This document shows positions 394 through 63,231 of a stretch of 64,000 nt of DNA, piece by piece (position 1 is the first letter of the stretch; each line of letters starts with the position of its first letter). Origin of the DNA: Reclinomonas americana ATCC 50394. Taxonomy: Eukaryota. The translations under genes were made by a program, and so were the position numbers. The stretch covers positions 124,500 to 188,499 of the forward strand of contig PS015187.1 of assembly GCA_048213135.1 (NCBI GenBank), in the 5' to 3' direction. The notes under the pieces are model-generated. The model worked only from the letters and a program-made list of their open reading frames with translations. It was not told the DNA's origin and did not search any database.

Positions 394-2543
394 ATGTCGT
401 GGGATTCGTGGGTCGACAACATGATGGCGTACGAGGGCGTCACTGGCGCCGCCATTGGCGACGCTGCCGGTGCCGGCATCTGGGCCTCGAAGGGCATTCA
501 GGTTTGTGTGTGTGCGCCATGTGTGCGAAATTCCTCCGCACTCCCTCTCCCCCCCCCCCCCACCTCGCCCTCCCTCTCCTGCACACCGCCTCTCTCTCTT
601 TTTTCCTCTCCATGTAGTCGCGACAGTTGAGCGAGGGAGTGAGTTGAGTGTGCGCGTGTGTTGTCGTCAGCAATGCTCAACTCGCACTTGCAAACTGCTC
701 GTCTGTTGTGCGCCATTTGCATGTTGTATGTGAGCTTGTCTCCTCCGCAACTGCTCTTGTGCGTGTCGTCGTGCGTGAGTTTGTGAGAGAGAGAGAGCGA
801 GTGTGTGTTCCGTACAATGGCAGCGCCGACATGGCGTCATCAACCTCACACGCGCACGCGCCACACACGCCAGAGCATTTGTTGTTGTTGTCATATGTAC
901 ACTCTTTATGTTTCTCTTCGTGTCTTTAGTGCGCTGATTGACTGCCTGAGTGATACCCTCTGTGTGTGTTTGTGCATGCAGATTCCCCGCGAGTTTAGCG
1001 AGAAGGCTGCTCGAGCGTTTACGAAGGCGGCTTCAGATGTTGCGTGTGTGCTGCTGCTGCTGCGCCGCCGAAGGGAGTGTGCAAAAGACTGATTTTTCCT
1101 CTTTCGATTTTGCAGGGCAAGACCACTTGCTTCTCAGAGGATGCCACGGTCGAGTTCAACGGTGTGAAGTTCACCACCACACAGGCTGATGACAGCATCA
1201 TCACCATCCTGAAGGTGCGAAGGGATAGGAGGAGAAGGGATAGAAGGAGAAGGGGAAGGGGAGAGACGGGGAAGGGGTTTGTTTCTTGTCCGCCAAGCGC
1301 AATACTTTGACGTCCTCTTTGTCAGACTCCTCTCCTTTTGTTGTGCCTCGCTTTTCGCTCTCCTCTCGCTCTGCTCTCTGCTCTTCGCTGTTTGCTTTAC
1401 TCTCTGCTCTGCGCTCTGCTCTGCGCTTTACTCTGCGCTCTGCTCTGCGTTCTACTCTGCGTTCTGCTCTGCGTTCTGCTCTGTGCTATCTGCTCTGTTC
1501 CCCGCTCTCCGCTCTGCTCCTCTCGCTCTCCGCTCTGCTCCTCTCGCTCTCCGCTCTGCTCCTCTCGCTCTCTGCTCTGCTCCTCTCGCTCTCTCTGCTC
1601 CTCTCGCTCTCTCTGCTCCTCTCGCTCTCTTATCTGCTCCTCTCGCTCTCTTATCTGCTCCTCGCTCTCTCTGCTCCTCGCTCTCTCTGCTCCTCGCTCT
1701 CTGCTCCTCTCGCTCTCTGCTCCTCTCGCTCTCTGCTCCTCTCGCTCTCTGCTCCTCTCGCTCTCTGCTCCTCTCGCTCTCTGCTCCTCTCGCTCTCTGC
1801 TCCTCTCGCTCTCTGCTCTGCTCCTCGCTCTCTGCTCTGCTCTTCTCTTTGCTCCTCGCTCACTGCTCCTCTCGCTCTCTGCTCGTCGCTCTCTGCTTCT
1901 CTCGCTCTCTGCTTCTCGCTCTCTGCTTCTCGCTCTCTGCTCCTCGCTCTCTGCTCGTCGCTCTCTGCTCCTCGCTCTCTGCTCGTCGCTCTCTGCTCGT
2001 CGCTCTCTGCTCGTCGCTCTCTGCTCGTCGCTCTCTGCTTCTCTCGCTCTCTGCTCGTCGCTCTCTGCTTCTCGCTCTCTGCTTCTCGCTCTCTGCTTCT
2101 CGCTCTCTGCTCCTCGCTCTCTGCTCCTCGCTCTGCTCTCCTCCTCGCTCTCTGCTCGTCGCTCTCTGCTCCTCGCTCTCTGCTCCTCGCTCTCTGCTCC
2201 TCGCTCTCTGCTCCTCGCTCTCTGCTCCTCGCTCTGCTCTCCTCCTCGCTCTTTGCTCTGCTCTCCTCCCTCTCCCATTGGCCTCCCTTTTGCCCTTGAC
2301 CCCTTTACTCAAATTTCCTCCCCCTGCAGCACGGCGTCGGCGGCATGGTCCTCGGCCACACCCCCTCGGCCATGGTCTACGCATGGGTCCCGACTGTTGC
2401 GTGTGCATTGCGCCATGATATTTCTCCTCCCTCCGTGCATACTCACTTCCCTCGCACCATTGCAGTTTGCGACTGGTGGCGCCGTCACTGGCGTGCAGGC
2501 CGTCGACAATGTGAGGAAGGCTCTGATCGGCATGGGCTACTAA
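394..2543 (+). CDS. PFN: Profilin, 5 exons (394-501, 982-1038, 1116-1214, 2330-2395, 2466-2543), 135 aa
   Basis: MSWDSWVDNMM..AAIG..GIWAS N-terminus, FNGVKF, GVGGMVLGHTPSAMV, C-terminal VDNVRKALIGMGY*; all introns GT-AG and in frame. Confidence 0.93.
1365..2265. repeat. Degenerate CTCTGCTCCTCG-type tandem repeat (about 16-18 bp units) filling profilin intron 3
   Basis: Directly visible; sense strand almost free of A. Confidence 0.9.
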
Positions 2544-2821
2544 GGATCCTGGTTGTATATCTCGAGCAGCATGCCCGTGATGGCACTCCCCGGTCTCGTT
2601 TTGTGTTGCTGTGCGCCCCACCCTTTTCTTCTTTTCGGCGCAATTGTGCGGCTTGGCGAGGCAGAGAGAGTGCGCGGTTACAGATGAAGAGTGAGTGAAG
2701 TGGAGGGCGATATCAAGGATGTAATCGGAGGTGGGAATGGGAAAGGGAGGGAGAGGGGAAGGGAGGGAGAGGGGAAGGGAGGGAGAGGGGAAGGGAGATA
2801 GGGAGGGTGTAGGGAGAGTGG

Positions 2822-3934: not shown

Positions 3935-4456
3935 TCACTCGGCCGCTGCAGCACCCGATCCCGCAGCAACCTCGCCAGCCTCCGCGGCCGCCGCCGATCC
4001 CAACGAGGGAGCCTGCGACGTCACCGACTCGCCGAGCTTCACCGTCAGGTCGTGGTACAGGCGGTTGAAGAAGATTACATTGCCCTGTGTTGTAGTGAAA
4101 AAAAAAGGGTGAGCTTGCATGTGTGCTGAGAGAGGAGAGGAGAGAATGACAACTCAACTCGGCGACGACGCAGCGTGACAAACGTCAGCGACTCGAGGGC
4201 GGGGATAAAGTGCACCACCATGACGCACAGATTGCCGACGCCGTCTTCACCGTGGGCGCGGACCTGCGGGGTGGGGAAGGGGGAGGAAAAGGGAAGGGAA
4301 GAGAGCGGTGAGACGAAAGAGGTGGGAAGAGTTGGCAAGATACAAATACAGGGGGAAGAGAAGACGGGAAGACAAGAGGGGGAAAAGAAGAGGGGACAAA
4401 GAGGGGGAAGAGAGGGAGAGGGACACACACACACACATACAGACAGACAGACAGAC

Positions 4457-4549: not shown

Positions 4550-7500
4550 AGGCGGAGGAGGAGGAGGAGGAGAAGGAGAAGGAGAAGGAGGAGGAGGAGG
4601 AGGAAAGATGGAGACTGACGGAAAAAGGGGGGAGAAAGGAGAACGAAGGAGAAAGACATTGCACTCCAGCAATCCGCACCTTGAAGCCAAACGACGCCGG
4701 TCGCGGAGCATCAATGCCCATGCCGAGTGAGGTCAATTCGGCACACACACGGTCGAGCGCCACTGGTGCGTCGAGGGAGCAGGTGAACTGCGTTGACGTG
4801 TTGATGACGCCGCTGAGCTTGGAGTGCGGCAGCAGCACCGAGTCCATCGTGCCCTTGGTGAGCAGGCTGGCGAGGGTGAAGGCGTCGACGCTGTAGAGGG
4901 GGAAGGGGGAGAGAAGGGTGAGGAGCAGGAAAAGGGAGACTAAGAGACACACAGAGAGTGAAGGTCGCAGAGGGAGACAGAGACAGAGAGAAAATCAAGG
5001 TCAGGGTTGACAATTGCAGTGACGAAATATGGAGATGCTTACAGCGAAACAGAAGACTCCGGCGAGACAACCACACAAAACCCGCCCTTCCCCCTCCGAC
5101 AAGACGCAACTAAGTGACCTCTCCAGCCCGGTACGACGAGGCACCACCGCGAGCGCTGGCCAGTGTCCGCTCAATGTCGACTCTCGCCTGGGTGAAGGCC
5201 TCGGCGATTTCCTGCTCCGTCGGCACCACATCCTCGGGCTTGAACGGCGGGCGGTAGTCTGGGCGCTTGTCCAGGTTGCTGAACAGAACACAGTGAGACG
5301 AGAAAAAGGGGAAAGGGGAGAAAGGGGGAAGGGGGGGAGAAAGGGAAAGGGATGAGAAAAGGAATAGAGGAGTAAGGGAAGGAGGTAGAACGGGAAGGAG
5401 GGAGAAAGGGGAGGAAGGAGAACAGGGAAGAGAGGAGAAAGGGAAGGGAGGAGAAAGGGGAAGGAAGGAGAAAGGTAAGGGGGAGAAAGGGAAAGGGAGG
5501 AGAAAGGAAAGGAGGGAGAAAGGGACAGGGAGACGAAATGGAACGTGCAGTTTACAACACCAATACGCAACGTGCGGAACCACGACTGGCCAATCACGTC
5601 GTGCAGTGTGAAGCGACGCGCTGGATCCGGCTCGAGCATGCCGCTAATGAGGTCCTTGACGCCTGCCGACAGCTCGACGTGGCGTGGCCATCTGAGGCGC
5701 TTCTCCACGGCCTCACGTTGGGTGGCGTATGGCATTCCTGTGGAAAAGGGTAGGTGAGGGGAAGGAGACGGGATGAGAGGAGACGGGATGAGAGGAGAAG
5801 GGGGGAAAGGAGAAGGGGGGAGAGGAGAAGGGGAGGAAAGGAGATGGGGGAAAGGAGAAGGGGGAAAGGAGGAGGGGGAAAGGAGAAGGGGGGAAAGGAG
5901 AAGGGGGAAAAGAGAAGGGGGAAAGGACAAGAAAGCAGAAAGAGAAGACGAGACACACACACGGAAAGAGAGAGTGAGAGAGAGAAAGAGAGAGAATGCG
6001 AATGGCGGGAAGAAGGAAACGCAATTGGTGATGAGGGGCGACGCGAGAAAGATGGCAAAACAATGCACATGACCACAATGTGAACACCCAGGCGAAGGAG
6101 AACGAATGCATCACTGGGCAACACCAAAAGAAACGGCACGAAACTCGCAGTGACCATGGCAAACAGAATCACACCCTGCGACAGACATCGATTGTGAGCA
6201 TCACAGCACAACAACCGCCCCACTTGCCACTCCAAACAAACCAGAGAAAACACGTCGGCCTTCATGCCGTCGTATTGCACGAGGTGGTCCACGACCTCCG
6301 GAGCAGCGTACACGCGCGAGCCACACGGAGTGGCCAACAGCGTGCCGTCAGTCTGCGTCTTGGCAAAGCCAAAGTCGCAGATCTTGGCATTGTCGTCGGC
6401 GTCCAGCAGCACGTTTTCGAGCTGCATAAAGCGAGGGTGAGCTTGGCGCAAAAGAGCCGTGGATTGGAGAGAGAGGGAACCTTCAGATCGCGATGGCAAA
6501 TGCCGCACGAGTGCACGTACTCGAGGCCAAACACAATGTCCTGGAAGTACTTGCGTGCCGTGTCTTCGCTCATGGCAACGCCGTTCTCTGTGGTGGTGGT
6601 GGAGGTGAGGGAGAAGAGGGAGAAGAGGGGGGAGAGGGAGGGGAGGGAGGGAGGGGAGGGAGGGGAGGGAGAAGGAGGGAGGGAGGGAGGAGAGGGAGGA
6701 GGAGGAGAGGAGGAGAGGAGGAGAGGGAGGAAGAGGAAGGAGAGGGAGGAGAAGGAGGAGGAGGAGAGGGAGGAGAGGGAGGAGAGCGAAGAGAGGGAGG
6801 AGAGCGAAGAGAGCGAAGAGAGGGAGGAGAGGAGAGGAGATGGGAGGGAGGGAAGAGAGAGAAAAGGGAGAAGAGAAAGAAGAGAAACAAAAGGGAGGAG
6901 GAGAGAGAGAACAAGAGAGACAGAAAGAGAGGAGACACGAGAGACAACGGTTGATACACGAAAAACAGCGAGCGAATGAAACAAGGAGACGAAGGAATCT
7001 TGAGCACGAAGACGGAGAGCGAAGGATAGAAGGGGTGAGAAACACCGCAAATAATGAGTCGGAAATTGATGAACCCGCCAGATACAGTTGCGCAGGTTAA
7101 CGAGAATAAGAAAGACACTTTCAGAGAGAGAGAGAGACGAAGTGACAAGAAAAGAAGTGGAAACATACGAAGGATAACACGGTGCACGTTATTAGTCAAG
7201 AAAGTGAATGACAATGAGAAGAGAGCGAGGGAAATGGAAGCCCGACAGGCGAGACCAATGCACCGGGATATACGACTGAAATAATCGATACAGGCGAACC
7301 ACGACGAGAAAGACAGTAACGAGAGGCAAAACGATCATTAAACCATCAGCATCCACGTACACAGGAGGCACACCCGCCTTCGCCTTTCCCTTCTCCCCTC
7401 TCTCCCTTTCCCCCCACTCACCAATGCGCGAAAACAACTCTCCCCCCGAGCAGTACTCCATAATGAGGTACAGCTTGCCCTCGTTCTTCGCAAACAGCGC

Positions 7501-10500
7501 CGCCTTGTAGTCCACAATGTTGCGGTGATGCAGCTTCTTCATAATGGCTGCCTCTCTGCGAGAATCAATCCCAGTTAAGCTTACGTAGACCAAGAGGGCG
7601 TTTCTCGTCTACCCTCTCACCTCCGCGACTGCTCCAGAATGTCGTGCATGCCTCGCGCCTCCAGCGAGCGAATATCGATTATCTTGGCGGCAACAATTTC
7701 CTCCGTTTCGCGATTCTGGGCGACGCACACTCTGCGCACACAACACGAAAGAGACAGCACGCACGACACGCACGACACACACACGCACGCCACGCCACAG
7801 AAGACACACGAGACAGACACAACTGAGCAAAAAACAATACAAGAGCACAGGGCAAGAAGGGGGAAAAGGGAGAGAGAGAGGGAAAGGGGAGAGCGCGGTC
7901 GCTCTGAATAGAGGAGAGAGAAGGCCCCAGTGCATCGATCTGTGCTCTACGCCTGCAATTGTACTCTGCAAAAGGGCAAGATCATTGGGAGAAAGAAGGC
8001 AAAGAGGGCCAAGGAGAAGTGCCGAAACGCAGCATCACACAAAGCCAGGATGGTTGCCAAGACTGACACAGAAACTGTGTCACAAAGTACAACGAAGTGG
8101 GCGAAGAGAACATGCCATCATGGAACTCAAGACACCAGACGAGGACTGTCACACATCAGAGCGAATAGAGACATGGAATCACGACGCACAAGTAAGAGAG
8201 TCACATCCGTCGCATGCAAGAGCGAAACGAGACATGAATTGCGATGCAGACAATCGACGAACTACACGAGTACAAGAATCACAAACGAGAGTTCGCAAAG
8301 CCAATGAATACGAGACAGAGAGAATCAACGACATCGAGAAAGGACACTTCAGAAGCACTGCGGTCAATGATGCATGAGACCGGGAAGCGCCAGGTAGAAA
8401 ATGAGCTCGCAGCGATCGACGCCGATAGTAGAGAAGAGACGCAAAGGCATTCACAAAACAAGACGGCAAGTAAATAAAAAAGCACAACGCATGCGACAAC
8501 CCAAGGTGCTGCGCAGAAATAAAGGTCAAAGACACTCTGCAGCGCCAAGGAGAAGAATGAGATCGCAGCGGTCGACGCCGATATAAGAGAATAGACGCAG
8601 AAGCATTGACAAAGTAAGACGACGAGTGCATAAAGCAGCACAACGCATGCGACAACCCAAGGTGTTCCGCAGAAGAAAAGGTCATAAAGACGGTGCAGCG
8701 CGAAGGAGGGAGAAGAATGAGCTCGCAGCGATCCACGCCGATCGCAGAGAAGAGACGCAAAGGCATTGACACAACAAGACAGCGAGTGCACAATGAAGTA
8801 CGACAGAAGAATCACACACAAAGCGACAACCTGCGACGACCCAAAGGGAAGGTCACAGAGACAGAGTAGCGCCAGGGAGAAGAATGAGCTCGCAGCGATC
8901 CAAGCCAATGCAGAGAAGACAAGACGAAGAATCTACGATGTGCCAAGACACAAAGCGACAGCTTCGGTAACCCAAGTCGGGAGGCACAGAATGAATTCAC
9001 ACACGAGACAGCGTTCGACAATCCAAGGTATCGCACAGAATGGAGGGTCATCCGAGGCAAGACGACGAATCCACGAGGTGCCAGGTCAAACAGAGACAGC
9101 TTCGACAACCACAGACGGGAAGCACAGAAAGAAAAGCCACACGAGACAGAGCTCAGCGTCGCACAGAAAGGAGGGTCACCAGAGACAAGACTACTAATGC
9201 ACGATGTCTAGGGCAATCAGACAGCGTTCGACGTCTCAAGCAGGGCAGTAGAGTGAAACCACACATGAAATGCCAGGGCGCAATGAGAGAGCAGGCGACG
9301 ATCTGAAGTGGTGAAGGGAGACAGCGTTCGACAAGGAGGGCAAGATGTGGATGCATGGAGTCAACAGCGTAGAAAGTGACAGCTAGGCAACACGCGCGAG
9401 GGGACGGCAATGCACGCATCACACGCAAAGAGAAAGCCCTCGTCGGTGCGCCAACAACGAATCACAAAAAAATGCGACGAAAGACAGCCCGAGATTGCGC
9501 ACAGAAAGCAGGCAAAGACGATTGCGATTTGCAAGAGCCAAAAAGACAAGAACAGGAACAGCAAGTCTCTCTCTCTCTCTCTCACGGACCCACTCCCTCT
9601 CCCTTCATAAACGCACTCTGCATTGGTGCCTTCGCCGATGCGGCGTAATATGACAAAGTTGCCGACGACTTTCAAACTCTTCGACGGTGACGCAGTAATG
9701 GCGGCCAGGGCAGCCGCTGCCGCAGCCGCCGTGGCCTCCGAGGAGGAAGAAGAAGAAGAACCAGCGAGTCGATTCGTGGGAGACACGGGAGCAGGAGAAG
9801 CAGCGGCAGCTGCCGAGGAGCCTGTTCTCACTGCGCGAGTGATCTTTTCGTGGTCTCCTTCTTCGCCATCTTCTTCTTCTTCTTCCTCTTCTTCTTCTCC
9901 ATCATCATCATCGCCTTCTGGTGGAGGTTCGCCACTGCTACTTCATCAAAGGAGAGAAAGAAGAGAGAGACGAGAGAAAATAAAGGCGGACCGCGCCCCC
10001 CCAATATATAACACGCAAACACGCACACACATAAACACACACACACACATAGACACACAAAATAGTGTCAGCGAAACAATCTGTGACAGAGCGGAGGCGA
10101 GCGAGCGAGAGAGACTGAGAGAGAGTGGTAACGGAACACACACGGAACAATGTCGCGCCATGTCGCACACTGAGTGCATCTCTTTCTCTCTCCTCCTCCT
10201 CTGCTCGTGCGCATTGCTGCTTGCTCTTCTGTGACCCCAGCGAGAGAGAGAGAGCGGAAGAGAGTGGAGAATGGAGAAGAGAGAGAGAGAGCGCGCGAAC
10301 GAGACAAGGCGGTTGAGAAGGTGACACTCAACTTGGCAAAACTGCCTTCGCCCAGCGTCTGACCTGCGCACACGCACATACACAAACGAGGGGCGTGAGC
10401 ATAAAAGAGAGTGAGAGAGTGTGTGTGTGTTGTGCGAGGAAAATGGCGCGAGAAGACATGACAACTTGTCTTTTTTTCGCGCGCAGAGAGAGGAATCGAT

Positions 10501-11660: not shown

Positions 11661-11935
11661 ATGCGCGCCTCTTTCGTGCTTCTGATCGCCGTGTTGGCGA
11701 TTGCGATTCTCGCGTCGTGCGTTGCTGCTTCTGCTTCGGGTGAGAGTGAGCGAGAGGAGTTGCATGCGTTGGCGTCGACGGCGTTTGGCGAGTCGGCTGA
11801 GGAGAAGTTGCGTGTGTGAGAAAGAGCAAGAGAGAGGGGGATGAAAGGGGGAGGGAAAGGGGGAGGGAAAGGGGAGGGAAAGGGAGGGGTTATATGTGGT
11901 TTGTCTGCAAGTGGGGAGAGAAGGAGTGTGTGTGC

Positions 11936-17339: not shown

Positions 17340-24330
<6,991 letters not shown>

Positions 24331-41953: not shown

Positions 41954-42580
41954 TCACGAGGTCGACTTGAGGAAGTTTCGTGAGCGAATAACGTCGCGAT
42001 TGTCGAGCTTGAAGAAGCGCTTCTTCTGCTCCAGCGTCATTTGCTGGAATGAGATCGCCCGCAGCTCCTCCAGAGAGAGCGTCTGCGCCTCCACCAGCGC
42101 GCTCAGCCACTCGGGGTACTCGTTGGTCGCCTTCACCGTGGGCACTGTGCGCGTCGAGGCAAAGTCGAGACCTTTCACTGTGCAAAAGAAAGAGAGAGTG
42201 AGAGTGGAGGGGAAAGGGAGAGGGAGAGAAGGGCAAAGGGGGAAGTGAGAGAGTGAGCAAAGAGGGAGACGAGGGAAGCGCACATTCATGCGTACTCTCA
42301 CTCTCACTCAACTTGGTGCACCGACAGTCAACGTCTGTGCGCCTCCACTGCCTGCGGCCGCCTGCGAGCCTCCCGCCTCTCCTCCCGCTGCAGCAGCTGC
42401 TGTAGGCTTCTTTGCACCAGCGCCCTTGGGTGCGCCCTTGGCCGCGGGTGCTGCGGCCTTTGCAGCAGGCGCACCAGCAGCAGCAGCAGCAGCAGGCGCC
42501 TTCCCGCCAGCTGCAGGCGCCGCGGCCTTCTCTGCGCGAGCGAGCACAGCAAGAACAGCGCGGCGCACGTGAGAGCTCAT
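41954..42580 (-). CDS. MRPL54: Mitochondrial ribosomal protein mL54 (L37/L54 family), 2 exons (42580-42313, 42178-41954)
   Basis: Arg/Ala-rich presequence; GLDF..PTVKATNEYPEWL..KRFFKLDNRDVIRSRNFLK. Confidence 0.85.
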
Positions 42581-49500: not shown

Positions 49501-52123
49501 CCGACGGTGGCCTGCGCCGCTGTCAAGCCACTGGTGTCGACGCTGACCGTGCCGTTCGCAAACGTCGCCGCCGCGGCATCGAGGTGGTCGCTCACTCGCA
49601 CCGACGGCGTCTCGAGCGACTCGGTCAGCAGCGCGGCACGGCACTGCATGCCGCCAATGCTGTCCATGGTGCACCCGTCCGGGCCACCGACAATGACTGA
49701 GGCGGCGGTCAGCACGGTGCTGGCGCGCAGCGTTGGCGACGAGACCGAGTTGGGCGAAATCGTGGTGCTGTCGTTGGTCGGCGCCGTCACGGACGACGAG
49801 CCGGTGGCATCGGTTGTTGAGAACGCATCGTCAGCGGCGGCAGCGGCAGCGGCAGCAGCGATTGATGCATTGCTGTCCACCACTCGCAGCATGCTGAACG
49901 ACGCCATGCCCGAACTGCGCAGTTCGTGGGCCGTCACGATACCAAACTGGGCATCCTCGCACACCACATTGCCGTTGTCCAGCACGGCGCATCGACCGTC
50001 GGCAAACGACGCCGAGCCCTTGACAGAGAGTGTGGACGAGACGTCCAGCTGCGGCGTCGAGATGCGGCCGCTGGCAATGTTCGTGCCCTGACCGTCGGTC
50101 AGCGACGAAATTGTTGCCGACGACGCCAACACGCTGTGAGCCGAAGGGGTAAGAAAATCGTCTGGGAAGAGGGGATGTTTGGTTGCGCGCGCACATACAC
50201 ACCCATTGAACAAGGCAGAGAGGCAGTCCTCGCCGCCGAAGCCAGTGTCACACACGCACTGCGGCTGCCCGGTCACCGAGTTGGCGATGCAGTGGCGATT
50301 GGTGCCACAGTCCACCATGCAGACGCTGCAGCGGCCATCACTGCCCTTGCTCCATCCAGTGGGACAGCGGAGCTGAGGGGGGAAGTGAGCGACGGTGGAT
50401 TTTGAGAAGGAGAGAGCAACGGCGGAAGACCACCAACCAGGTTGCACGACGGTCCCTCCCAGTTGGCGTCGCACAAGCAGTTGCCTGCGGCGTCGCAGTT
50501 GCCGTGGTCCGAGCACGTCTCACTCCGGCTGCATCCACACTGCGGGCCGCCGAATCCCGCGGCACAGGTGCACGAGCCATTCAAGCACTTGTTGGGAGCT
50601 CCACCGCTGTTGTGAGGAGAGAAGAGAGATGAGAAGTTGGTGTGGATGCTCCCTGTCAGCAGCAGTCACTCACCACTGAGCCTCCGAAATGCACGCCACA
50701 CACTTGTTCGGCGACGCTGGATCGCACATGGTTCCCGTCGGGCTGCACGCAGCAAGAGAGATATCAGAAACTATTTTTTCTTCTCGTGCGCGACGGGAGG
50801 TGGCCTTACCAGTTCGCTTGCACGCACTCGCAGTTGGTGCCGCCAAAGCCCGGCAGGCACACGCAGCGGTTGCTCATCGGCTCGCACGGCGCACCATTCG
50901 CGCACTGGCAGTCGACCGTGGTGCACGTGCTTCCCTTCCAGCCAGTGAAACAGATGCACTGGCCATTGGAGGCGCACATGCCGTTGCTGTTGCACGTCTC
51001 CAGATCGGAGCACTCGCAGAAGCGACCATTGAAACCTGTGAGAGTGACGGTGAGACGAACACGTCCACAGCTGCAGAACTGAGCACGAGACGATAATGTA
51101 CCAGGATTGCAGACGCACACATTGCTGACACAGGAACCCGACGAGGAGCCACCGCTGTGACAGCAGGATAAGTACGCAAACAAAAAAAAAGAGATCACAG
51201 AGAGACCACACACCAGGCCACATCGTTGGTGCAGTCCACCGACTCAGTAGGCGACGATCCACCGACTATTCCACTCGATGACGAAGACGACGACGATGAG
51301 GAGGACGATGAGCTTCCGCCAGCAGCAGAAGCCGGCGGTGCCGGCGGCACACCATTCAACCATCGCGAGCAGTCCACGCCAGTCCACCCTGCATCGCACG
51401 AGCAGGCGCCCGACGCGTCGCACGAACCGTGATCGTTGCACGACTCGAGTCGTGAGCACTCGCAGTTCACACCTCCACGATCTGCAATCCGCATGAGCAA
51501 CACACCGCACACACTCTCTCATTGCGTCCACACTCACCAGCCGCGCAAATGCACTTGCCACCGACGCACATGCCTCCATCCGATCCACCACTGTCACCGA
51601 ATAAGCACATTGTATCTCACTGAGGGCGATCGCAAGGAGCATAGACGCAACCACTGCGCGCTGGTGGTGCAGACAGGCGGTGTGTCGCCACTCCACTTGG
51701 CACACGAGAGGCCCGCCCAACCCGCGTCGCACACGCATGATCCATCGGCCGCGCACGATCCGTGTCCATTGCACGACTCGTCCCGAGTGCACTCACAAAA
51801 CTCTCCACCACTCCCTGCACCGCCACAGCATGAGTACTTGCAAGAGAGAGAGAGAGAGTGGAGGTGTGTGCGCGTCTCTCTCACCTGGGAAACACGCGCA
51901 GGCGCCATTGATGCACTTGCCGGATCCATTGCACTGTTGACTGTCAACACAAGCCGCAGTGGCCTCCTGCACCGCAGCTGCCACTAACACCAATGCTACA
52001 ACCACGAGCAGCAGCAGCAGTCGCGTGCTGCCAAAGCCTCTTGTCACTGAAGAGAAGAAGTTGTCCCGAGTTTGGTAAGTCTCTCTGTCAATGGTGGAGA
52101 AAAGAATGATGATGCACTCAACT
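46586..52123 (-). CDS. Secreted protein: signal peptide, about 10-11 tenascin-type EGF modules, long Gly/Ser/Thr/Val-rich beta-repeat (fibre-like) region, small C-terminal domain
   Basis: LLLLLVVVALVLVAAAVQEATA; repeated CNGHGSC..GSCVCDAGWxGxxC; then about 1100 aa with repeated (L/I)TDG and F(A)(D/N)G motifs; ends WMRLI*. Confidence 0.85.
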
Positions 52124-52302: not shown

Positions 52303-55300
52303 TCAATCGGAACCCTCGGCTGCCTGCGAGGCCACCTGGGCAAAGCTCAGCGGATGTACCAGTGGTGGCCGCAGGTGGGCGACCAGATGCGCGCCGAGTT
52401 GCACCAGAACCTCCACAGCACCGGGGACAAGCTGCGAAACCAGGCACTTGAGTGGAACATGTGCAAGACAAAAGCCGTCTGTGTGCGCGTCCTTGCACGT
52501 ACCTCGGGTGCGGTGCGACGCAGCTCGTCGCAGGCCGCCAGCATGGCATCCTGGAGCCGGAACGCCGGCAGCACCCCGGTTTCCAGCAGTGCCGTCCAGA
52601 AATCGGCAAAACCGACGGTCAGTGGCGGCGACAAGTGCCGCATGGTGCGCTCGCCCAGCAGTGCACGCCACACAAGGTGCATGCGAGTGCGTAGAAGTTG
52701 TTGCGCTGCTCCAAAGAGCATCGACAGCGATTTGCTGTCCATGCTTTTGCCCTCCTGCCGCTCGCGCACCAAAAACGACGGAAACACGCACGTCCACACC
52801 GCCGTCACCACCTGATGCGCGATCTCATCCAGGTCGGCCATGGGCAAGTGAAGGTCGTGCATCATCGATGCAATGGCCGCAAACTTGTCGACGAGCACCT
52901 CCGCTGACTGGCGGCGACGCAGAGCGGCCACTTGCACGGCCAATTCATGTCGCACGCCGAGGCGTGAGGTGGCCGAGGGCCACTCCAACGTCACCTCCTT
53001 GACCGGTGGCACCGCTGGCAGAGGGTCCTCGACAGCCGCAGCCAGCTCCTCGACATCCGCGGCACGCAGCTTGGCCGCGGTTGTGAGCGACCGACGGAAC
53101 TGTGAATAGTTAGCACAGCTGCAGAGCACAAGAGGTCACCCACAACATCTCCTCACCTTTGTCCAATGGTGCGAGAGTGACGAGCGAAGCAGCAACTGAA
53201 TGTCGGCTTCCAGACTTCCCGTGATGTACTGTTCACACGACTGTGTCGTCAACTTTACGGCCAGGTCACGAGCGGCGGCATTGTAATCTTGCACACATGT
53301 GAGACTAAAGAAAACATCACGCGAGGACAACACTGCGTCGCACACCTGGAGGCACCAAGTTCTGCATCAACAGTGCAATCTGCTGCCGGCACTGTGCCAC
53401 TGCGCACTCTGTGACCGGGCCCAGCGCCAATGCAGTGGCATGTCGCACCATGTCGCCCATCATGTCACCGGCACCTGCCGACTGCGCGGCGTCACATACA
53501 CCAAGGATCAGAATGACGGAAGCTCCTCACTTGTCGCACCCACACACACACTCACAGTCGCTGCAGCACAATCGGATGCAGCCGCAGCCGGCTGCACGAG
53601 GAACAAGCGACATGTGGCCTGCACGTGCGACATTTGAGCGCGGTGACTCGGGAAGAAACAACCTACGCGACTGCGGCGTGCCACTGACCTCAACCGCGGG
53701 CGGCAGCAGCTGTGCGCAGCTGTGCCGTCGGGCATTGTCTGCCACTCGACGCACAAGAAAATTGGCCAGCTGCTTCAGTTGTGGATTGGCGTCGAAAAAT
53801 GCGTCGTGCAGCTGCGGGCCAGCAGCGTCGTCGGCACTGCTCGCACCCACGACCACAGGCTGCCACAACGAAAAATGAAAATGAGAGGCACGAACCAAGC
53901 AAAGGGCACAATTCTTTTGGTATGTGCACACCTTGACCAGCACGGGAACGACCTTGCGGATGCTTGGCGAACCCATCGTGCCCGGCGACTGGCACTTGAC
54001 GCCACCAAGCCGCGCACTGTCGTACGCCGAACTGAACACCTGCCGGACAGCGTCACAGTCGTCCGACATGGTCACTAGCGTGTCGCCTCCGTCGAGGAGG
54101 CCGAGCGATGCAGCTGCATCGGCATCCTGCATATGTGGTGCGTGTGTGAGTGTATGCATGGTGAGAGCCGACAACGCCATACACGTCGCACTGAGCTCCT
54201 CACGAACCGTTCGCCACACAGCCATGGACTCCACGGCAGCTGCGCTCGCTTCACTGGCAACTGTGGCCAGCAGATCCGGCACCAGGCTCCACTCCAGAGC
54301 CTCTTCTACCACCGCACGCAGGCCGCTGCTCAAGATTCGTGCGTCAAGTGGCACATCCTCGCGCTGCACGAGTTCAGCGCACTGCTTGCGAATGTGCAGC
54401 AGCAGGATCCACGCTTGTCGAATCGGTTCCAGTCTGTGGTGCGCAGTCAGTCGCAAGAGAGAGACGAAGAGGGAAAGAGACGAAGAGCGGGAAAGAGAGG
54501 GGGAGAGAGACGAAGAGAGGAGAGAGAGGAGACGAAGGAAAGGAGAGAGAGGAGAGGAAGAGAGGACAGCGAGAGACGAAGAGAGGTGAGAGAGTGAGAG
54601 AGAGAGAGAGAGAGACGAGAACAGAGAGAGGAGACAAAGAGAAGGAGAGAGAGGGAGGCGAAGAGAGGAGAGAAAGACTAAGAGAGGAGAGAGGGAGACG
54701 AAGAGAGGAGAGAAAGACGAAGAGAGGGAGAAAGCACATTAACGAGAAAAGGAGAAAGCGAGGGGATGAATGTTGACAATGGGAGAGACGGAGCGAGAGA
54801 GAGAAAGCACATTAAAGACAAGGGAGAAAGCGAGACGAAGAATGTTGACAGCGGGAGTGACAGAAGCGAGAGAGAAAGCACATCAACGAGAAAAAGAGAA
54901 AGCACATCAACGAGAAAAGGAGAAAGCGAGGGGATGAATGTTGACAATGGGAGAGACGGAGCGTGAGAGAGAGAGAGAGTGAAAGTACACGAAGAGAAAG
55001 AGATAGAAAGAGACGAAGCATCTTGACAACTAGAACTGGCGAAACCGAGAAAGGGGGAGAGTGCATGTACCAAAGAACGAGAGTGCAGAAAGCATGAGGA
55101 CATGGATGCGCAACTCCAAGGCCGTAGCCGATCGAATCGATGAGCGGAAGAGCGGCATCATCCAGGTGACATGCGCCGGCAGTTGATGCAGTGCAGCGGC
55201 TCGACGGAGGATCGAGACCAGAGCCAATTTGTCGGCAACGTGTCTGTCGCACACCACAGTCAGTTACGCAAACATACTCGTCTCTGCGGCGTTGAGGCGC

Positions 55301-57565
55301 TCACGCACCTCAGCAGCACTTCGTTGGTGGTCGACAGCTGAATGTCCACCTCCTCACCGCAGTACGGCGAAAACACGAAGCGACCGAGAAACTGGAAGCA
55401 CAAAAGCATGCACATGAGAATGGTTCTGCCACAAGTGTCATGAAAAATCACGACACACCTGCGCCAGTATACTGGCACGCATGACTGAATCCAACACAGG
55501 AATCGACACATCCATCATGGCGTTGACCAGCTCCCCCAGTGCCTGAAGCACAGCCTCGATGATCTGGAGATCACAGAAATCGTGAGCGACAGCCGCGATC
55601 GACGATGCACAGCACCACCACAACGACATGACCTCGCCCGTCAGCAATGGATTGTTGGCCACCTCCACAAACTTGCTAAAGAAAGACTCGGGACCGGTGA
55701 CAATGGCAGGCAGTCCGCCATCGGCCAATGCCGACCGCGGAATCATAGTCCCGCCCACCGTCGACGACGCGCTGACACGGTGACCACACGGCTGCGCGCA
55801 ACCATGTCACTGAGGAACATGCCGTCACACATACGATGATAAGGTGGAACGTACCAGCGGCTGGTCGGAAGCCAGGGCGGCCAGACCACGCACTCGTCGA
55901 TTCAGCTCGCGCAATTTCACACCCTGGTGCCAGTCCACGGACTGGAGCTTGGCGACAAACACACGCGCGAATGGTGCACACAAATCTGGTCTGAGCAGCG
56001 CAACCACGCGTTCCATCTGCATTGCACGATCAGCGCAGGCGCAAGCACAAAGCAGCATCGCCAGCACGCAACATCAGTCTGCAAATCACGAACGGCGCGC
56101 TTGGCGGCCTTGGATAATAGCTGAAAGAAGGCGTCGTTCAGCTTCTCCGCGCCAGCAACTCGCTCCTGCAACAGTAATAGCGGCGAAGAGGCCGACGACG
56201 ACGACGAGGATGGCGACGGCACCGTGGAAGCGGACGACGATGACGGCCCATGAGGCATGCGGAGAGCCGACGATCCGAACACGGCCGCTGACGATCCGTT
56301 GCTGCGCAGTGCCGATACACGCGATCGCACCCGGCTGGCACTCTCGCGCAACTGATCCGTCACCTCCGGCGCCAGCGCAGTCACGCTGTGACACAGGAGT
56401 GAGAATGCATAGCATGGCACAACAACCGACAGCGAGGCACCAACATTGTGTTTCCCGCGATAGCCTCGGTCACAGCCGGCATGAGAGCCGACACGCACGG
56501 AACGAGACGCCGCAGAGTGGCGGCCACAAACGCGAGAACTTCATCGGCCGACAGGAAGCAGCTGCCGATTGAGGTGCCGGAGCGTGGTGGACTGGCCCGA
56601 TAACAACAGTGAGCGATGCATACTCCATTCCCCCCGCCGACAACACCACCACACACGCAACTCGGCCGCTCGCAACAGCAGCGAGCCCAACAAGTGCAGC
56701 TCCACCATCAAACTGGGAGCGTGACCGGCGACCAGCACCACGGCATGCAGCGCCGCCATGCTGTTGACAAACTCGCACTGATCCTCCGGCAGCGCCGCCA
56801 CACGACCAAACAACTCGAACGGGTTCACAGCCGTGCCCCGTGGCGAACTCGGCAGCGTCGGCGTTGTCACTGACAACGCGCATGTGAGTCTCTCCATTCT
56901 AGAATAGATCATATGGCGCCTCGATCCTCACCTGGCCCGCTGACAAGTCGAGGCTCCACGCGAGCCGCCTTTCGTGGCGGTCGTCGCTTCCCACTGGCAT
57001 CGTCCATCGAAGACGACGCAGGGGCGGCAGCAGCAGCAGCAGCAGCAGAGGAAGAAGAAGAAGAGTGACCGCTGGGCGGCATGAGCGGTCGATCGAGAAT
57101 GCTGCCGAGAGCGTCGCGTTTCGCCGTGGCCGACAGCGGTCGTCGATTCGTCGATGATGATGACGAGGAAGGAGGATGAGGCATACCATGCATGCGAGAT
57201 GGTACAGAGGAGGCAGCAGAAGAAGTCGTTGTCGAAGATGATGATGATGATTGACTGTGCTGTTGATGTTGATGATGATGATGATGATGAAGGGCTGCGT
57301 GTGGCAACGGAAGCAGTCGACGCAGAGAGGCGCGCACGGCGTTGAGGTAGTCGAGGGCGAACTGTAGGGCCAGTGCATCGCCAGCGGCCTGTGCGTTGGA
57401 AGAGGAGGTGGGAGAGTGAGTGAGTGCGTCAGTTGTCCTTTTCTGTGTGAGTCGCACCATGCGGGCGAGCTGTGTGGCGGCCTCATCGCGTATGCGGGTG
57501 CCCTGCTCGGATCGGTCGAATAGTAGTGCGCGGGTGAAGTGCAGTGGGGTCTCAGCGGAGTGCAT
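52303..57565 (-). CDS. CDAN1: Codanin-1 / discs-lost-like protein
   Basis: Ordered motifs recalled from codanin-1: FALDYLNAVR, PSLMVELHLLGSLL, KLNDAFFQLL, FARVFVAKL, KLRELNRRV, ESFFSKFV, FLGRFVFSPY, QLHDAFFDANPQLKQLANFLVRRVADNA. Confidence 0.75.
54730..54970. repeat. Patchwork direct repeats in a codanin-1 intron
   Basis: GAAAGCACAT..GAAAGCGAG..GAATGTTGACA block present three times. Confidence 0.7.
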
Positions 57566-57625: not shown

Positions 57626-60600
57626 TCATGTTACAACGCCCATGACACCGCGAATGCTCTCGATCCACTCATGCATCTCGACCTCGTACTCCGCCACCAC
57701 GTAGTACGTGCGCGAGGGAGTGACCAACTGCACTGACAAGCATCAGCAAACACCACACCAACGTGTCTCCCACAAGCACCACTGACCTCGAAACACCACT
57801 GCTTGTGGATGGCGGGATTGGTGCACGGGTGGACGTGTCGCAGCGAGAGCATGTTGATGGTACCGCGCGGCTTGGTGGCCTGTTGTATCGCGCGATTCAG
57901 CACCACTGGCAATGCGATACGTATACAAGAGAAAGAAAAGACGCAACGAGCTCCGTCTTGAAGTAGCACAGTGTCAGTGTGGTGGAGTCGAGCACAAACC
58001 ACCGCCGCCGCCAGCTCTTCACGATGCGGCCCTGCTTGACGAGCCAGCCCATTTTCAGCACCGGCACGGCAGTTCGTCGCTTGCCCCACAGCGCACTGCC
58101 GCTGCGCAGACTGGCCTTCAAGTGTGTGTCCATGCGACGCGCCGCCTCTGCCGCCGCTTGTGGTGACTCTGCCAAGTAGAAATCGTGTGAGCCGACCGCA
58201 GACTCCATACACACTTACAGGGTTGCTCTCAACTCTGCAGCAGGAACAGTGACTTGCGTCTCAGTTCCTCGGCGTCGGCATACTTGCCAAGCTCTCGTTG
58301 CACCGTGGCCAGCCGCGACAGAATCTCTCCGTACTCGGGATGCTCCTCGCCACCGTGGTGACTAAGCATGGTNNNNNNNNNNNNNNNNNNNNNNNNNNNN
58401 NNNNNNNNNNNNNNNNNNNNNNNNNNNNNNNNNNNNNNNNNNNNNNNNNNNNNNNNNNNNNNNNNNNNNNNNGGATGTGGCGCGCACAAAGCAGAACGTG
58501 GACAAGCTGGACGATGCGGCCATTTGCACGCAGCAGGGTGTCGAGATTTTGCGGAATGCTTTCAGCGAGGCCTCCAAGTTGTGCGCGGGCGCCGATGGTG
58601 GCGAACCGGAACCGAGCGACCTCGATGTGGAGCCGTTGCGCATTCTGCGATGCTGGTACGCCGAGGCGTTGTGCATGCTGGGCGACTCGTGCAAGGAGTT
58701 CCGCGAGCTCGACGAGGCGGAGATGGCCTACAAGCGTGAGTTTCCTGATTCGCCTTTTTCCTGTCAACAGCCTGCTGTCGCTGACATGTGTTGCGCAGAG
58801 TCATTGTCGCACATGAGCGCGGTGTGCCCCGAAAATCACGAGAGCATTGCGCAGTTGAACTCGCGTCTGGCCGCGGTGGCCGCCCTGCGCGGCCAGTACG
58901 ACCAGGCAGAGACCTTGTACCAGTTGCGAATCTCTTGTTTTCCCTCCTCAGCAAGCTGTGCGTGTTACTCACACGCGTTGGTGAGCAGGCGAGCGCTGNN
59001 NNNNNNNNNNNNNNNNNNNNNNNNNNNNNNNNNNNNNNNNNNNNNNNNNNNNNNNNNNNNNNNNNNNNNNNNNNNNNNNNNNNNNNNNNNNNNNNNNNNN
59101 NNNNNNNNNNNNNNNNNNNNNNNNNNNNNNNNNNNNNNNNNNNNNNNNNNNNNNNNNNNNNNNNNNNNNNNNNNNNNNNNNNNNNNNNNNNNNNNNNNNN
59201 NNNNNNNNNNNNNNNNNNNNNNNNNNNNNNNNNNNNNNNNNNNNNNNNNNNNNNNNNNNNNNNNNNNNNNNNNNNNNNNNNNNNNNNNNNNNNNNNNNNN
59301 NNNNNNNNNNNNNNNNNNNNNNNNNNNNNNNNNNNNNNNNNNNNNNNNNNNNNNNNNNNNNNNNNNNNNNNNNNNNNNNNNNNNNNNNNNNNNNNNNNNN
59401 NNNNNNNNNNNNNNNNNNNNNNNNNNNNNNNNAACATCACCTTGCCGACCAGCACCTCGGCCGACTGTGTCATCTTCTCCACTGCGCCAAGCGTTTAGAG
59501 AGGACGCGGGGTACTCAAAACAAACAACAACAACAGCGCACCCGTGATAACAGACACCGGAGGCGATGACAGCGCCGGTTCGCCGCAGTCAGAGCCACGG
59601 TCACTGTCGTCGACATCTTCCATGCTCGGCGACGCATCGGTCGGCGCAGTGACCGAGGGTGGCGAGAGCGGAACCGATGCCACATAGGACATGTCGAGCG
59701 TGTGTCGAGGGTTGTGTGACCAGCGACGGCTGTCTGCGTGCTGCCGGCTGGTAATGCAAAGGACGAAAAGGTGAGGTGAAAAAAAAGAAAAAGGCCATGC
59801 TTAATCAGAAGGAAGAACGCAACATCTTGTCGGCAGCCATGGGAGGCGCCAGTTGCGGCCCCTCGTGCTGTGCACCGGCCCAGTAGTGCCTCAAGTGGGC
59901 GGCCACGGACGGAATGCGTAACCGCTCGTCCGACATGCTGCGCGCACTGCGCGACCGCGACATTGTTGGCGTGCCCTGTGAGACGATGGATGGATGAGCC
60001 TTCCTTCATGACAAGTACATGCACAGAAGTATTCGTGCACGCACTTCTCCTGCAGTGAGCGCCGAGTGCTCGGAGGCTGGCGACGATCCGGTCGAGTCAA
60101 CAACAGCGCCGTGCCCGCGGAGTGACACGCTGTTGCTCGAGTGCAAGAGGCCATCAAAGCTCTTCTCCATGGCATGTCGCTCCTTGTCCATGGGCGGCGA
60201 GATCTCCAAGCAAATCTCCACCAGCTGGTCGGCCACCGCATCGGCGTCCTCGTATCGGCTCATCATTTCACACGTGCGCAGTTGGTTGCGCAGAGCACCA
60301 ATCAATTTGGCGGTGTACTTGTTGAAACCGTGCATTGTCTGCTGACAAAGTAAGAAAGAACGAAAGAGAGAGACAGAGAAAGGAAATTGCACGTCTCGCA
60401 TACCTTGCGACTGCGTGACGCCCGACTGTGCAACACGCGATACACGGAAATGCACTGGCGGAACATGTCCTGGCAGTCCTCGAAACGACCGCGCGCAAAC
60501 AGAATCACCGCACAGTTATGCAGTGCTTTGGCGTAGCTGTGGAAGTGCCGCGGTGTGAGTCACCCACAAGCTCCTCCCCATCTATTGTGCATCAGACGCA

Positions 60601-63231
60601 ACATGGCACTCGAGTTGCCGTACAGACTTGAGCGAAGGGCCACACACTGCGCACTCAGCCGCTCCGCTCGTTCCGAATGCGCCGATCGCAAGTGGACGTC
60701 AGCCAGCTCGCTCAGCACCTCCGATCGCAGACAGAGCGCAGAGTTGCAGATGGAGCTCCGTTCGAGCACCGTCAGCGCGGACTGCCAAAAGCACACAGTC
60801 AGAAATTTGTCGTGCCCGAACTGGACCAAGGGAAGTGCACACGCACCTCGAGCACTCGCTGCTTGTCATGAGCATGCTCGGGGTCCGTGAAGGTGGAGGA
60901 CAGGAGCAGTGCAGCACGCGCCCAGTGAAAGTTGATGCGCTCACACTCGACTCCAAGTCGCGACACCTCGCCGTACACCTCCAGACACGAGGTGAGGAAG
61001 GCTCGCGCCGACTTGGACTCGTTGAAGCGCAGGTAGTGCGAGCTGGTCTCGTACCTGGTGCGGAATCAACATGAGAACATGGCGACACAAGGGGAAAGGA
61101 GCAGAAGCAAAGAGAGAGGAAGGTTAAAGACGCAACAGAGCCTCGGCCACACTGGCGTGAGTGAGACCGAGATGCCGCTGACGCGACTCCAAGCACCGCA
61201 GAAACATGTGCTCGATGGCCTCCACTCGAGGAAGCGGTGACTTGAGCTGAGGCTGCCACATGATAGTATAAGTAACGGTCAGAACATACACATTCGCAGG
61301 CGCAAACGCAACTCGTACGCCTGCCGACACGTCGCGCAAGACTCGACTGAAGCAGCAGCCGGCATGCAGTTGTGCATATGCGTACTCCAGGCTGCTCTCG
61401 CCCCACTGCTGTCCGGTGAGTCGCAGAGCGTCGGCAAAAAGGGAACAGGCATCCGCCGCCCGATCGAGGGAGTCGAGCAGGCGCGAGAGGAACAGCTGGT
61501 AGACAGGGCACAGCTCGCGCCTCTCCGCAGTTGACACCGGCTGAATGTGTGACGACCACAAATCGATGGCCTCCTCGGGCGGCACCCGTGTGATCTTGGC
61601 AGTGATGATTGACAGCGACGAGAGGCGTGAGAGAGAAGGCCCGTCATCTGCGCCGTCACCACTGTCATCGCCGTGGTCGACTTTCGACACGTCCATCTCT
61701 CCCTGCCCGACGCCCACATTCACACGCGAGCCTGCTCTGGACACGACGCCTCCATCGCGCCCAACCTCGTCCTCACCGTCATCGACCTCCTCCTCTTCCA
61801 CCTCGACAATGGCATCGATCGGGTCGATGGTGATGGCCGACAGAGAGCTCACCACACTCGACGAGATGTCGGTGTGCGGTCGACGCACAGTTATCGGCTG
61901 TGAGGCGGATCTTGGTGGCGAGGCTGCTGTGGCAGCGGCGGTGGTGTCTGTTGCCGATGCTGCTGGTGCCACAGGTGCCAGTACACCGGCACCACCGGAT
62001 TCGGCCACCAAGAACGGATCGAACGAAAAATGCGCCGGCAGCGTGTTCCGCAGCGAGGGAGTGTGACTCACGCGATGGGCAGACGGCACCGCTGCTGCCG
62101 CAGCCGCCGCAGCCGCAGCTAAAGCAGCCGCACCACTGTTTGTCGATGTTGTGGACGACCGCACGGATGTACCTTCCGGTGCCGTCAACAGCCGACCGTC
62201 GGCAATGTGCGTCAGCGTCGTGTCACTCAATCGCATGTGCGACCGGATGCTCACACGCGGATTGGGATCATCCGAGTCGGCTGGTGCACACACAGGAACA
62301 GTCAGCAGCTCACTCTCACTCTCTCACAAGCGCATCGGAACACACACCATCGATGCTGCTGGCCTCCGGTTCGCACATGAGATGGTACTCGTGGAACAAA
62401 TTGGCAAAGGCGACCTCGGGTGGCAGGGCCGGGAAACTCCCACTGCTTGGTTCTTCCCGCTGCAGACACACACACACACACACACGAGAAGAATTGGCAA
62501 CGAGGGATATTATGAGGAAAAATTGCAGAGCGGGGCAAGCGCACCGGTGCACTCTGCAACAGAGACATGCTCATGCGCGCCGGCAGCGACTTCATGTACT
62601 CGGGTGAGGCCACATCAGCGAGCTGATCAACCATCGACGTCGACGACTCTGTAAGACAGTGAGTCACCTGTTCTGCGTGTGACCCACGGCAACACATCGT
62701 CGCAACTGTGCTTGCCGCGTGGTACGCGCTGAGGACTCCCCACAGCAGCTGCCGCCGCTGTGGTGGCTGACGCAGCAGCCGTGGATGCGGCCGACGACTG
62801 TCATGACGAGCGAGTGAGCAACGACCATAACACCGACAGATAAAACATGTACGCAACAATACCCGGCACCACCTCGGGCTCCGCGGCGGTGCAAAACTCG
62901 ACGCACAGACGAATGACCCGCTCCACCATGTCGTGGCTCGCCCACTCGACAGCAAAATCAGCACATCGATGCAAGTCGCGCAGCCACAATTCGCTGGTGT
63001 TCTCCACTGCAACGACACGGGTGAGCTGGTGGACAAATCGTGTGTGTAAGCAAAGAGGGGGTCGCAACTGAGCGGACGCCACTGCGGGTCCTTGGCCAGC
63101 GACTCAATCACGCGGAACAGGAGCGCAAACTGTAACTCATTTTGTTTGTACAAGAGTTGTGCGCGCCCGGGAGACCGGTCATTGACCTCGCTCAGCTGCA
63201 GCAGCGAATTCAAGTACAGGCCGACCAGCAC
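57626..63231 (-). CDS. Large TPR (kinesin-light-chain-type) protein with C-terminal PH domain; 5' end beyond the window
   Basis: FLRCLESRQRHLGLTHASVAEAL, GEEHPEYGEILSRLATV..GKYADAEEL; PH: VLKMGWLVKQGRIVKSWRRRWFVL..PRGTI..FELVTPSRTYYVVA..EMHEWIESI. Confidence 0.85.
58473..58998 (+). CDS. Exons of the TPR-PH gene lying in inverted orientation between two N gaps
   Basis: TPR peptides (PENHESIAQLNSRLAAV..GQYDQAETLYQRAL) on + while the flanking exons are on -. Confidence 0.85.

Follow-up and report, generated by a model that had tools for sequence, protein, structure and literature searches.

A frequent GTTGCGT class of 5' splice sites in Reclinomonas americana, probably the ordinary donor motif read one base off register

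The window analysed here is a 64,000-nucleotide stretch of the genome of Reclinomonas americana ATCC 50394 (assembly GCA_048213135.1, contig PS015187.1, positions 124,500 to 188,499 of the forward strand), and all coordinates below count from its first letter. Two main kinds of 5' splice site (donor) can be told apart among its introns: an ordinary one, defined as GT[GA]NG (class A), and a second one beginning with GTT, defined as GTT[GAT][CAT]G (class B), in which the G at +6 is fixed by definition. Our results confirm that GTTGCGT, a class-B sequence, is a genuine and frequent 5' splice site in this organism. The two classes amount to a single heptamer, G-(G/T)-T-G-N-G-T, with the cut displaced by one base, and the GTTGCGT introns appear otherwise to use the ordinary (U2-type) machinery. 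We consider it reasonably probable that in these U2-type introns GTTGCGT presents the seven bases that also mark the ordinary donor, but one base out of register, and we infer that U1 is what reads it in this shifted position.

Results

Junctions placed by homology

Splice junctions were placed by a motif-blind spliced aligner (protein to DNA, BLOSUM62), which accepted GT or GC...AG introns and had no other information on donors; homologues were fetched by single exons. For the GH13 alpha-amylase-like gene (24330-17341, minus strand), 24 homologues were found; the 21 that reach 400 aa all placed introns 21918-21331 and 19589-19288, both of which begin with GTTGCGT. The other donors of this gene were GTGCGTG and GTACTTA (15/21 and 12/21 homologues), GTTTGTC, GTGGGTG, GTACGCT and GTGCGCA (20 of 21 each), GTGAGTG (all 21) and GTGCGAC (18 of 21).

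For the acyloxyacyl-hydrolase-like (AOAH-like) gene, which combines saposin and GDSL parts (11661-17100, plus strand), a single homologue was found (P0175, 514 aa). Its residues 1-514 aligned across 12 introns; the donors at 13190, 14658 and 16995 all read GTTGCGT, and the residue index of the homologue is contiguous at each. The first-pass annotation of this DNA, made from the sequence alone, had held several GTT sites to be constrained by conserved residues. The peptides that it gave, AHFVENHDE at 19589 and VSFSGND at 14658, agree with the junction peptides obtained here, SAH[F]VENHDE and LLAFV[S]FSGNDV. As to the two sites that it had tied to conserved cysteines, the one at 13190 is placed by P0175; the one at 51651 occurs in no model, though Cys-rich frames flank it on both sides.

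In the protein kinase gene with a C-terminal extension (approximately 10379-3936, minus strand), 83 of 150 representative homologues lay within 280-900 aa, and 69 of those scored at least 250. They placed introns at 7421 (GTGAGTG, 54/69), 6480 (GTTCCCT, 69/69), 6241 (GTTTGTT, 68/69) and 6144 (GTTTCGT, 41/69), and a second kinase domain added three more ordinary donors (25, 40 and 39 of 40 homologues). The intron 6480-6422 (minus strand), only 59 nt long, is located within the invariant kinase motif, between HRDLK and LENVLL, and its donor GTTCCCT fits neither class.

The cullin gene was approached through Pfam family PF10557, whose positions 6-31 lie on the exon of 27 residues that precedes 38775 and whose positions 33-61 lie on the next exon, contiguous across the junction. 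A homologue search with the 76-aa cullin exon gave no match, and five of ten single-exon peptides submitted to Pfam were without a family (before 38923, after 40746, after 57947 and two profilin exons).

Class B accounts for 6 of the 29 homology-defined introns, or for 7 of 30 when 38775, which was examined because it had been noted beforehand, is included. For 29 GT sites drawn at random, the probability of five or more GTTGCGT is 1.3e-7.

Gene finding and motif counts

The any-GT gene finder is a generalised hidden Markov model (HMM) that accepts any GT as a donor at a flat cost, with intron length limited; starting from eleven seed open reading frames, it trained its own models of coding sequence, intron interior and acceptor. 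A second version of the finder used a learned donor mixture model. The any-GT finder predicted 82 introns, and the commonest donor heptamer among them was GTTGCGT (12/82), every other heptamer occurring at most three times. Set against the 31 copies among the 7,510 GT sites of the window, this is a strong enrichment (p=1.6e-15). Unsupervised expectation-maximisation (EM) on the same 82 donors returned GTTGCGT as the best motif with one component (about 26 sites), and GTG.GT (about 33) and GTTGCGT (about 24) with two. Of these 82 any-GT donors, 31 fall into none of the classes and were probably not placed precisely.

The share of class B is 17/82 in the any-GT model, 27/82 in the learned donor model and 31/94 in the merged catalogue. 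The proposal in the first-pass annotation of a mainstream donor class is thus borne out, with 6/29 to 27/82 introns and GTTGCGT as the commonest single donor heptamer; its hand count of 11-12 GTT-class introns among 40 in the first four genes compares with 13/40 in the models. All 30 positions at which it placed GTT-type donors do begin with GTT on the strand given: 19 read GTTGCGT, four GTTGAGT, two GTTGCGC, and one each GTTGCGA, GTTGCGG, GTTGTGT, GTTTCGT and GTTACGT. Exact recovery of these sites amounted to 14 for the any-GT finder, 20 for the learned-donor model and 7 for homology or HMM coordinates, with a union of 24/30. The sites recovered by no method are 38923, 40746, 51651, 52122, 58923 and 61312; compatible open frames are present on both sides at 38923, 40746, 51651 and 61312. 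Further class-B donors, beyond those 30, were predicted at 5110, 60602 and 63068 by the any-GT model and at 11807, 32344 and 56072 by the learned model only.

A comparison with background, which the first-pass annotation had suggested as a check, gave 31 copies of GTTGCGT on both strands where an order-3 Markov model predicts 11.1 (z=6). Together with GTGAGTG it is at the top of the over-represented non-repeat heptamers starting with GT, and it is the commonest among the 30 permutations of its own last five letters. With respect to predicted genes, 24 of the 31 copies are sense and 2 antisense (binomial p=1e-5), and four of the five copies outside gene models lie on the sense strand within homology-defined or noted genes. 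A predicted or homology-defined donor is found at 20/31 copies of GTTGCGT, at 8/67 copies of GTGAGT and at 5/77 copies of GTGCGT.

Base -1 and the one-base offset

The last exonic base separates the two classes. In the homology set G at -1 is present in 16/17 ordinary donors and 0/7 GTT donors (Fisher 2e-5), in the any-GT set in 17/25 and 0/17 (Fisher 4e-6), and in the merged set in 33/38 class-A and 1/31 class-B donors, against a background of 24% (G before exonic GTs). As ordinary donors carry G at -1 and GTT donors do not, the ordinary G-1 therefore corresponds to G+1 of the GTT sites. Aligned in this way, positions -1 to +6 of class A (G G T G N G T) and +1 to +7 of class B (G T T G C G T) differ at only one of their seven positions. 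Further inward the same displacement is seen: G is found at +7 in 17/38 class-A and at +8 in 13/31 class-B donors, and T at +8 in 12/38 class-A and at +9 in 15/31 class-B donors. Class-B introns show nothing conserved past +7.

In the merged set class B is strict (G at +4 in 30/31, C at +5 in 26/31, T at +7 in 26/31), and class A is loose, with A, C and T at +4 in 13, 12 and 12 donors and T at +6 in 21/38. The GTT class had originally been described as the ordinary motif with an extra T, which moves the conserved G/T from +5/+6 to +6/+7. The displacement is real, as seen in the T at +7 and in EM, which is free of our class definitions and returns the same motif; the bulged T that this description implies is not upheld, since G at -1 is lost in the GTT class. 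The -1 pattern argues for a shifted U1 register over a bulged T.

Not every donor beginning with GTT belongs to the second class. The GTTTGT donors at 502 (+), 6241 (-), 22339 (-), 37278 (+) and 43025 (+), of which 6241 and 22339 are homology-defined, are in the ordinary register, because they keep G at -1 and at +5.

Intron interiors and 3' ends

The introns of the two classes have median lengths of 70 and 69.5 nt (Mann-Whitney p=0.86) and similar phases. A branch-like CT[CG]A[CT] 8-45 nt from the 3' end occurs in 21/31 class-B and 22/38 class-A introns, the acceptor is CAG in 27/31 and 32/38, and the pyrimidine content is 0.70 versus 0.72. The U12-type branch motif CCTTRAY was found in 0/31 class-B and 1/38 class-A intron tails. 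The blastn comparison between different class-B introns (31) gave no matches.

Catalogue of class-B donors

The class-B donors and candidates of the window are given below (coordinates of the heptamer, strand, description, evidence).

1039..1045, plus: GTTGCGT donor, profilin intron 1039-1115 (77 nt); any-GT finder, reading by eye
2396..2402, plus: GTTGCGT donor, profilin intron 2396-2465; any-GT finder, reading by eye
4152..4158, minus: GTTGAGT donor, C-terminal part of the kinase gene, intron 4158-4085; any-GT finder
5104..5110, minus: GTTGCGT donor, intron 5110-4891, beyond the noted sites; any-GT finder
5565..5571, minus: GTTGCGT donor, end of the kinase domain; learned-donor model, reached by only 2-3/69 homologues
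6138..6144, minus: GTTTCGT donor, kinase domain intron 6144-5738; 41/69 kinase homologues
10326..10332, minus: GTTGAGT donor, first intron of the predicted 5' part; learned model only
11807..11813, plus: GTTGCGT donor, first AOAH-like intron 11807-13083, beyond the noted sites; learned model only
13190..13196, plus: GTTGCGT donor, AOAH-like intron 13190-13257; P0175 index 31/32, any-GT finder
14658..14664, plus: GTTGCGT donor, AOAH-like intron 14658-14720; P0175 index 315/316
16995..17001, plus: GTTGCGT donor, AOAH-like intron 16995-17076; P0175 index 481/482
19583..19589, minus: GTTGCGT donor, amylase-like intron 19589-19288; 21/21 homologues
21912..21918, minus: GTTGCGT donor, amylase-like intron 21918-21331; 21/21 homologues
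30874..30880, plus: GTTGCGT donor, N gap inside the intron; learned model only
31838..31844, plus: GTTGTGT donor between RCC1 repeats; learned model only
32344..32350, plus: GTTGCGC donor, beyond the noted sites; learned model only
35071..35077, plus: GTTGCGT donor, intron 35071-35131; any-GT finder
36789..36795, plus: GTTGCGT donor, intron 36789-36828; any-GT finder
38769..38775, minus: GTTGCGT donor, cullin C-terminal intron 38775-38718; PF10557 coordinates on the flanking exons
38917..38923, minus: GTTACGT candidate donor, cullin; fitting open frames
40740..40746, minus: GTTGCGG candidate donor, cullin; PF00888 positions 183-246 on the upstream exon, downstream exon without Pfam match
42306..42312, minus: GTTGAGT donor, intron 42312-42178; any-GT finder
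42730..42736, plus: GTTGCGC donor, ankyrin gene; any-GT finder
43934..43940, plus: GTTGCGT donor, ankyrin gene, G at -1; learned model only
51645..51651, minus: GTTGCGT candidate donor, EGF-rich gene, G at -1; Cys-rich frames on both sides, in no model
52116..52122, minus: GTTGAGT candidate donor; upstream side without convincing coding sequence
55108..55114, minus: GTTGCGC donor, intron 55114-54434; any-GT finder
56066..56072, minus: GTTGCGT donor, beyond the noted sites; learned model only
56655..56661, minus: GTTGCGT donor; learned model only
57941..57947, minus: GTTGCGT donor inside the PH domain; any-GT finder, PF00169 positions 1-35 on the upstream exon, likely acceptor 68 nt on
58923..58929, plus: GTTGCGA candidate donor; N gap 58999-59432 downstream
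59817..59823, minus: GTTGCGT donor; any-GT finder
60596..60602, minus: GTTGCGT donor, beyond the noted sites; any-GT finder
61130..61136, minus: GTTGCGT donor; any-GT finder
61306..61312, minus: GTTGCGT candidate donor, 60-nt in-frame intron; read-through also open
63062..63068, minus: GTTGCGA donor, beyond the noted sites; any-GT finder

Genes of the window

The window is intron-dense, with approximately 57% G+C outside its ten N gaps, and its conserved genes have 10-12 introns each. Besides the genes located above, it contains a profilin gene (394-2542, plus strand) and further recognisable genes: a kinase followed by RCC1 repeats, the cullin, an ankyrin gene, EGF-rich genes and a PH-domain gene. 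Intron lengths are bimodal, mostly 55-95 nt with a minority of 0.3-1.9 kb. The long introns, e.g. 1215-2329 (+), 17791-19064 (-) and 19736-21072 (-), contain micro- and minisatellites whose sense strand is CT-rich, with units like CTCGCTCTCTGCTC. Strong strand skews and sub-threshold miRNA-like Rfam matches arise because these satellites fill the long introns. The search of the window for small nuclear RNA (snRNA) genes gave no Rfam match at gathering thresholds, and the E-value mode returned sub-threshold low-complexity matches only.

Among named relatives, Naegleria, Andalucia and Acrasis have the sequences closest to the amylase-like gene (62-67% over a single exon), with other assemblies reaching 73%; Paramecium, Entamoeba and Dictyostelium rank behind these three. 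A metagenome scan for relatives with introns yielded 23 loci, of which the closest two show 68% and 58% identity on contigs of 1.8-2.0 kb, about transcript length, and the remaining ones show 34-44% identity or partial matches.

A WD40 gene at 25081-27409 (+), directly 3' of an N gap, encodes about 780 aa in a single exon among intron-dense neighbours and consists of many near-identical repeats (VAVTPDGQ.IVSGS...RVWS). At 29400-32600 (+) what appears to be one gene joins a protein-kinase domain to a long coiled-coil part rich in E, R and Q and to RCC1 repeats; three introns of its kinase part end with the acceptor TAG instead of CAG. The region 46587-52300 (-) is a very large extracellular-type gene region with EGF-like Cys-rich modules, which are followed by a 714-aa open exon (48378-50519), rich in short repeats and without a recognised family.

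Discussion

One motif, two registers

The observations can be united in a simple scheme. U1 snRNP would pair alike with G-(G/T)-U-G-N-G-U in both classes. At ordinary sites (G/GTGNGT, the first slash marking the cut) cleavage would follow the first G, and at shifted sites (/GTTGCGT) it would precede that G, as only there does a GT start; later factors (U6, U5, Prp8) would then make the cut at the GU that the site offers. The shifted class would lose one G:C pair, with U+2 facing a C of U1, and we propose that its consensus is rigid because the lost pair requires all other positions to be optimal.

Several points weigh against this scheme. The sample is one 64-kb window with approximately 94 introns, 30 of them homology-defined; some introns in the merged catalogue of 94 come from a model already fitted to both motifs, and all junctions rest on homology or coding potential. 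The duplex energies were calculated with ViennaRNA for assumed U1 5' ends, the pairing partner itself being an assumption. If the U1 5' end is standard, GUUGCGU is predicted to pair at +0.5 to -1.7 kcal/mol, negligible in any register, and GUUGAGU at -2.7 kcal/mol. Because the GUUGCGU duplex is the weaker one, standard U1 alone does not explain the C at +5; according to the duplex prediction, it would favour A at this position of GTT donors. Moreover, class B carries G at -1 less often (1/31) than class A does at -2, its counterpart position (10/38), which a simple shift does not predict. The class-B frequency is also below background (1/31 vs 24%, p=0.002), and one may guess that class B avoids a competing standard register, G/GU.

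Assumed U1 ends with G at position 5 (ACGUAC or a hypothetical ACGCAC) are predicted to pair with the UGCGU core at -4.2 to -7.5 kcal/mol. The strong preference for C at +5 (26/31) hints that class-B sites may be read by a non-standard U1 with G opposite +5. Tentatively, and with slightly less than even confidence, we put forward that a single U1-binding heptamer, G-(G/U)-U-G-N-G-U, is routinely used in two cleavage registers, so that a fifth to a third of the introns would have their pairing one base off the scissile bond. The likely reader would be a U1 with a changed 5' end (G opposite +5), perhaps along with a second variant matching U+2.

Other explanations

A related possibility, which we regard as unlikely, is a U1 variant, dedicated to GUUGCGU or co-evolved with it, whose 5' end (for example ACGCAAC) would match all of it in Watson-Crick pairs; the two donor classes would then be served by a pair of U1 species. 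It would account for the C at +5, unexplained by standard U1, and for the favourable duplex energies obtained once U1 position 5 is G; it has precedents in the co-evolution of Entamoeba and Mastigamoeba donors and in the coexistence of standard and modified U1 variants in Physarum, as given by Roy and Bowser (bioRxiv 10.1101/2022.06.08.495308). However, it leaves the six-of-seven identity at a one-base offset and the -1 dichotomy as coincidence, and it merges in part with the shifted register, in which a variant differing only at position 8 would still pair. An improbable alternative is a bulged register, in which U1 would pair in the standard register with the additional T (+2/+3) looped out of the duplex. 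Human 5' splice sites do include bulge +2/+3 and +3 registers (Tan et al. 2016, PMC4856993), and the intron-side pairs would be the same as in the shift model. Position 9 of U1 would nevertheless still pair with -1, where G would be expected as in 16/17 ordinary donors; it is seen in 0/7, 0/17 and 1/31 GTT donors.

We find it very improbable that the GTTGCGT introns form a separate class handled by other machinery, such as a transformed U12-like spliceosome, or a mobile introner family carrying its own donor. Minor introns have undergone a large expansion in Physarum. Like U12-type introns, class B is a second class with a rigid, extended 5' consensus and no exonic G preference; yet its donor is neither RTATCCTT nor otherwise of the TATCC type, the CCTTRAY branch site is missing from all 31 tails, and branch-like motif, pyrimidine content and acceptors are alike in both classes. 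A repeat or introner family was likewise rejected, as class-B copies share no similarity beyond the splice sites, with no blastn matches and nothing conserved beyond +7. Hardest of all to credit is an artefact of mis-called junctions, with GTTGCGT merely a common sense-strand word. Such a view could draw on the 6 of 30 noted sites recovered by no method and on those catalogue entries that were predicted with the motif already learned, but it is excluded for the homology-defined junctions, which used no motif information, and it is opposed by the enrichment at any-GT donors.

Comparison with known systems

Roca and Krainer are said to have shown a shifted register for rare human sites in 2009, and bulged-nucleotide U1 registers were reportedly described by Roca and colleagues in 2012. 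According to Tan et al. (2016, PMC4856993), experiments in human cells have established the shifted register. Human curated non-canonical U1 registers together make up 2.1% of 201,541 sites there, and bulge +2/+3 and +3 registers 68 and 51 of 201,541 predicted sites (Table 3). As in R. americana, human shifted sites are cut at the GU at +1/+2, the G/U pairing with C4 and A3 of U1 lies at +6/+7, and all U1 pairs move by one position, G+1 replacing G-1. They are, however, few exceptions, in contrast to 6/29 to 27/82 introns here, and the human test oligonucleotide has AAGU at +4 to +7, unlike GUUGCGU with its strict C at +5. Bulged U1 registers also place one extra nucleotide between the GU and the U1-pairing G/U, but the bulge keeps -1 paired with C9 of U1, whereas G at -1 is absent from the class described here.

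Unusual donors are known from other protists. Roy and Bowser (bioRxiv 10.1101/2022.06.08.495308) list the donor GUUUGUU with U1 AACAAAC for Entamoeba, GUGCGC with U1 ACGUAC for Mastigamoeba, and +4C donors with standard U1 for Thecamonas and Mamiellales. The Entamoeba and Mastigamoeba donors resemble ours in being atypical and extended, T-rich or containing a C able to pair with a G of U1, and GTTTGT donors, which resemble the Entamoeba consensus, occur in this window too. Unlike R. americana, where two registers are found within the same genes, each of these four has a single standard-register consensus. The Mastigamoeba genome has 3.4 introns per gene, compared with 10-12 in the conserved genes here.

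The literature search, which covered neither supplements nor many subscription papers, so that a mention in a genome paper is possible, found no description of GTTGCGT-type donors or of a mainstream shifted class, and the accessible parts of the diplonemid splice-site paper and the Mastigamoeba genome paper make no mention of a GTT class. What is new here is the -1 dichotomy, which links both classes as one heptamer cut at two places.

Significance

How the spliceosome fixes the bond to be cleaved after U1 has marked the site is still argued, largely from rare human sites and engineered reporters. Extrapolated from this window, thousands of introns of R. americana would use the shifted register. 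For genome annotation this is a warning, as gene finders with a single donor matrix would blur both classes and mis-place many exon ends. If the proposed reading is true, these introns would supply abundant natural data on the rules of the hand-over between U1, U6 and U5 and would test the co-evolution of snRNAs with donor classes. R. americana would then be a natural system in which the marking of the site by U1 is uncoupled from the choice of the cleaved bond genome-wide.

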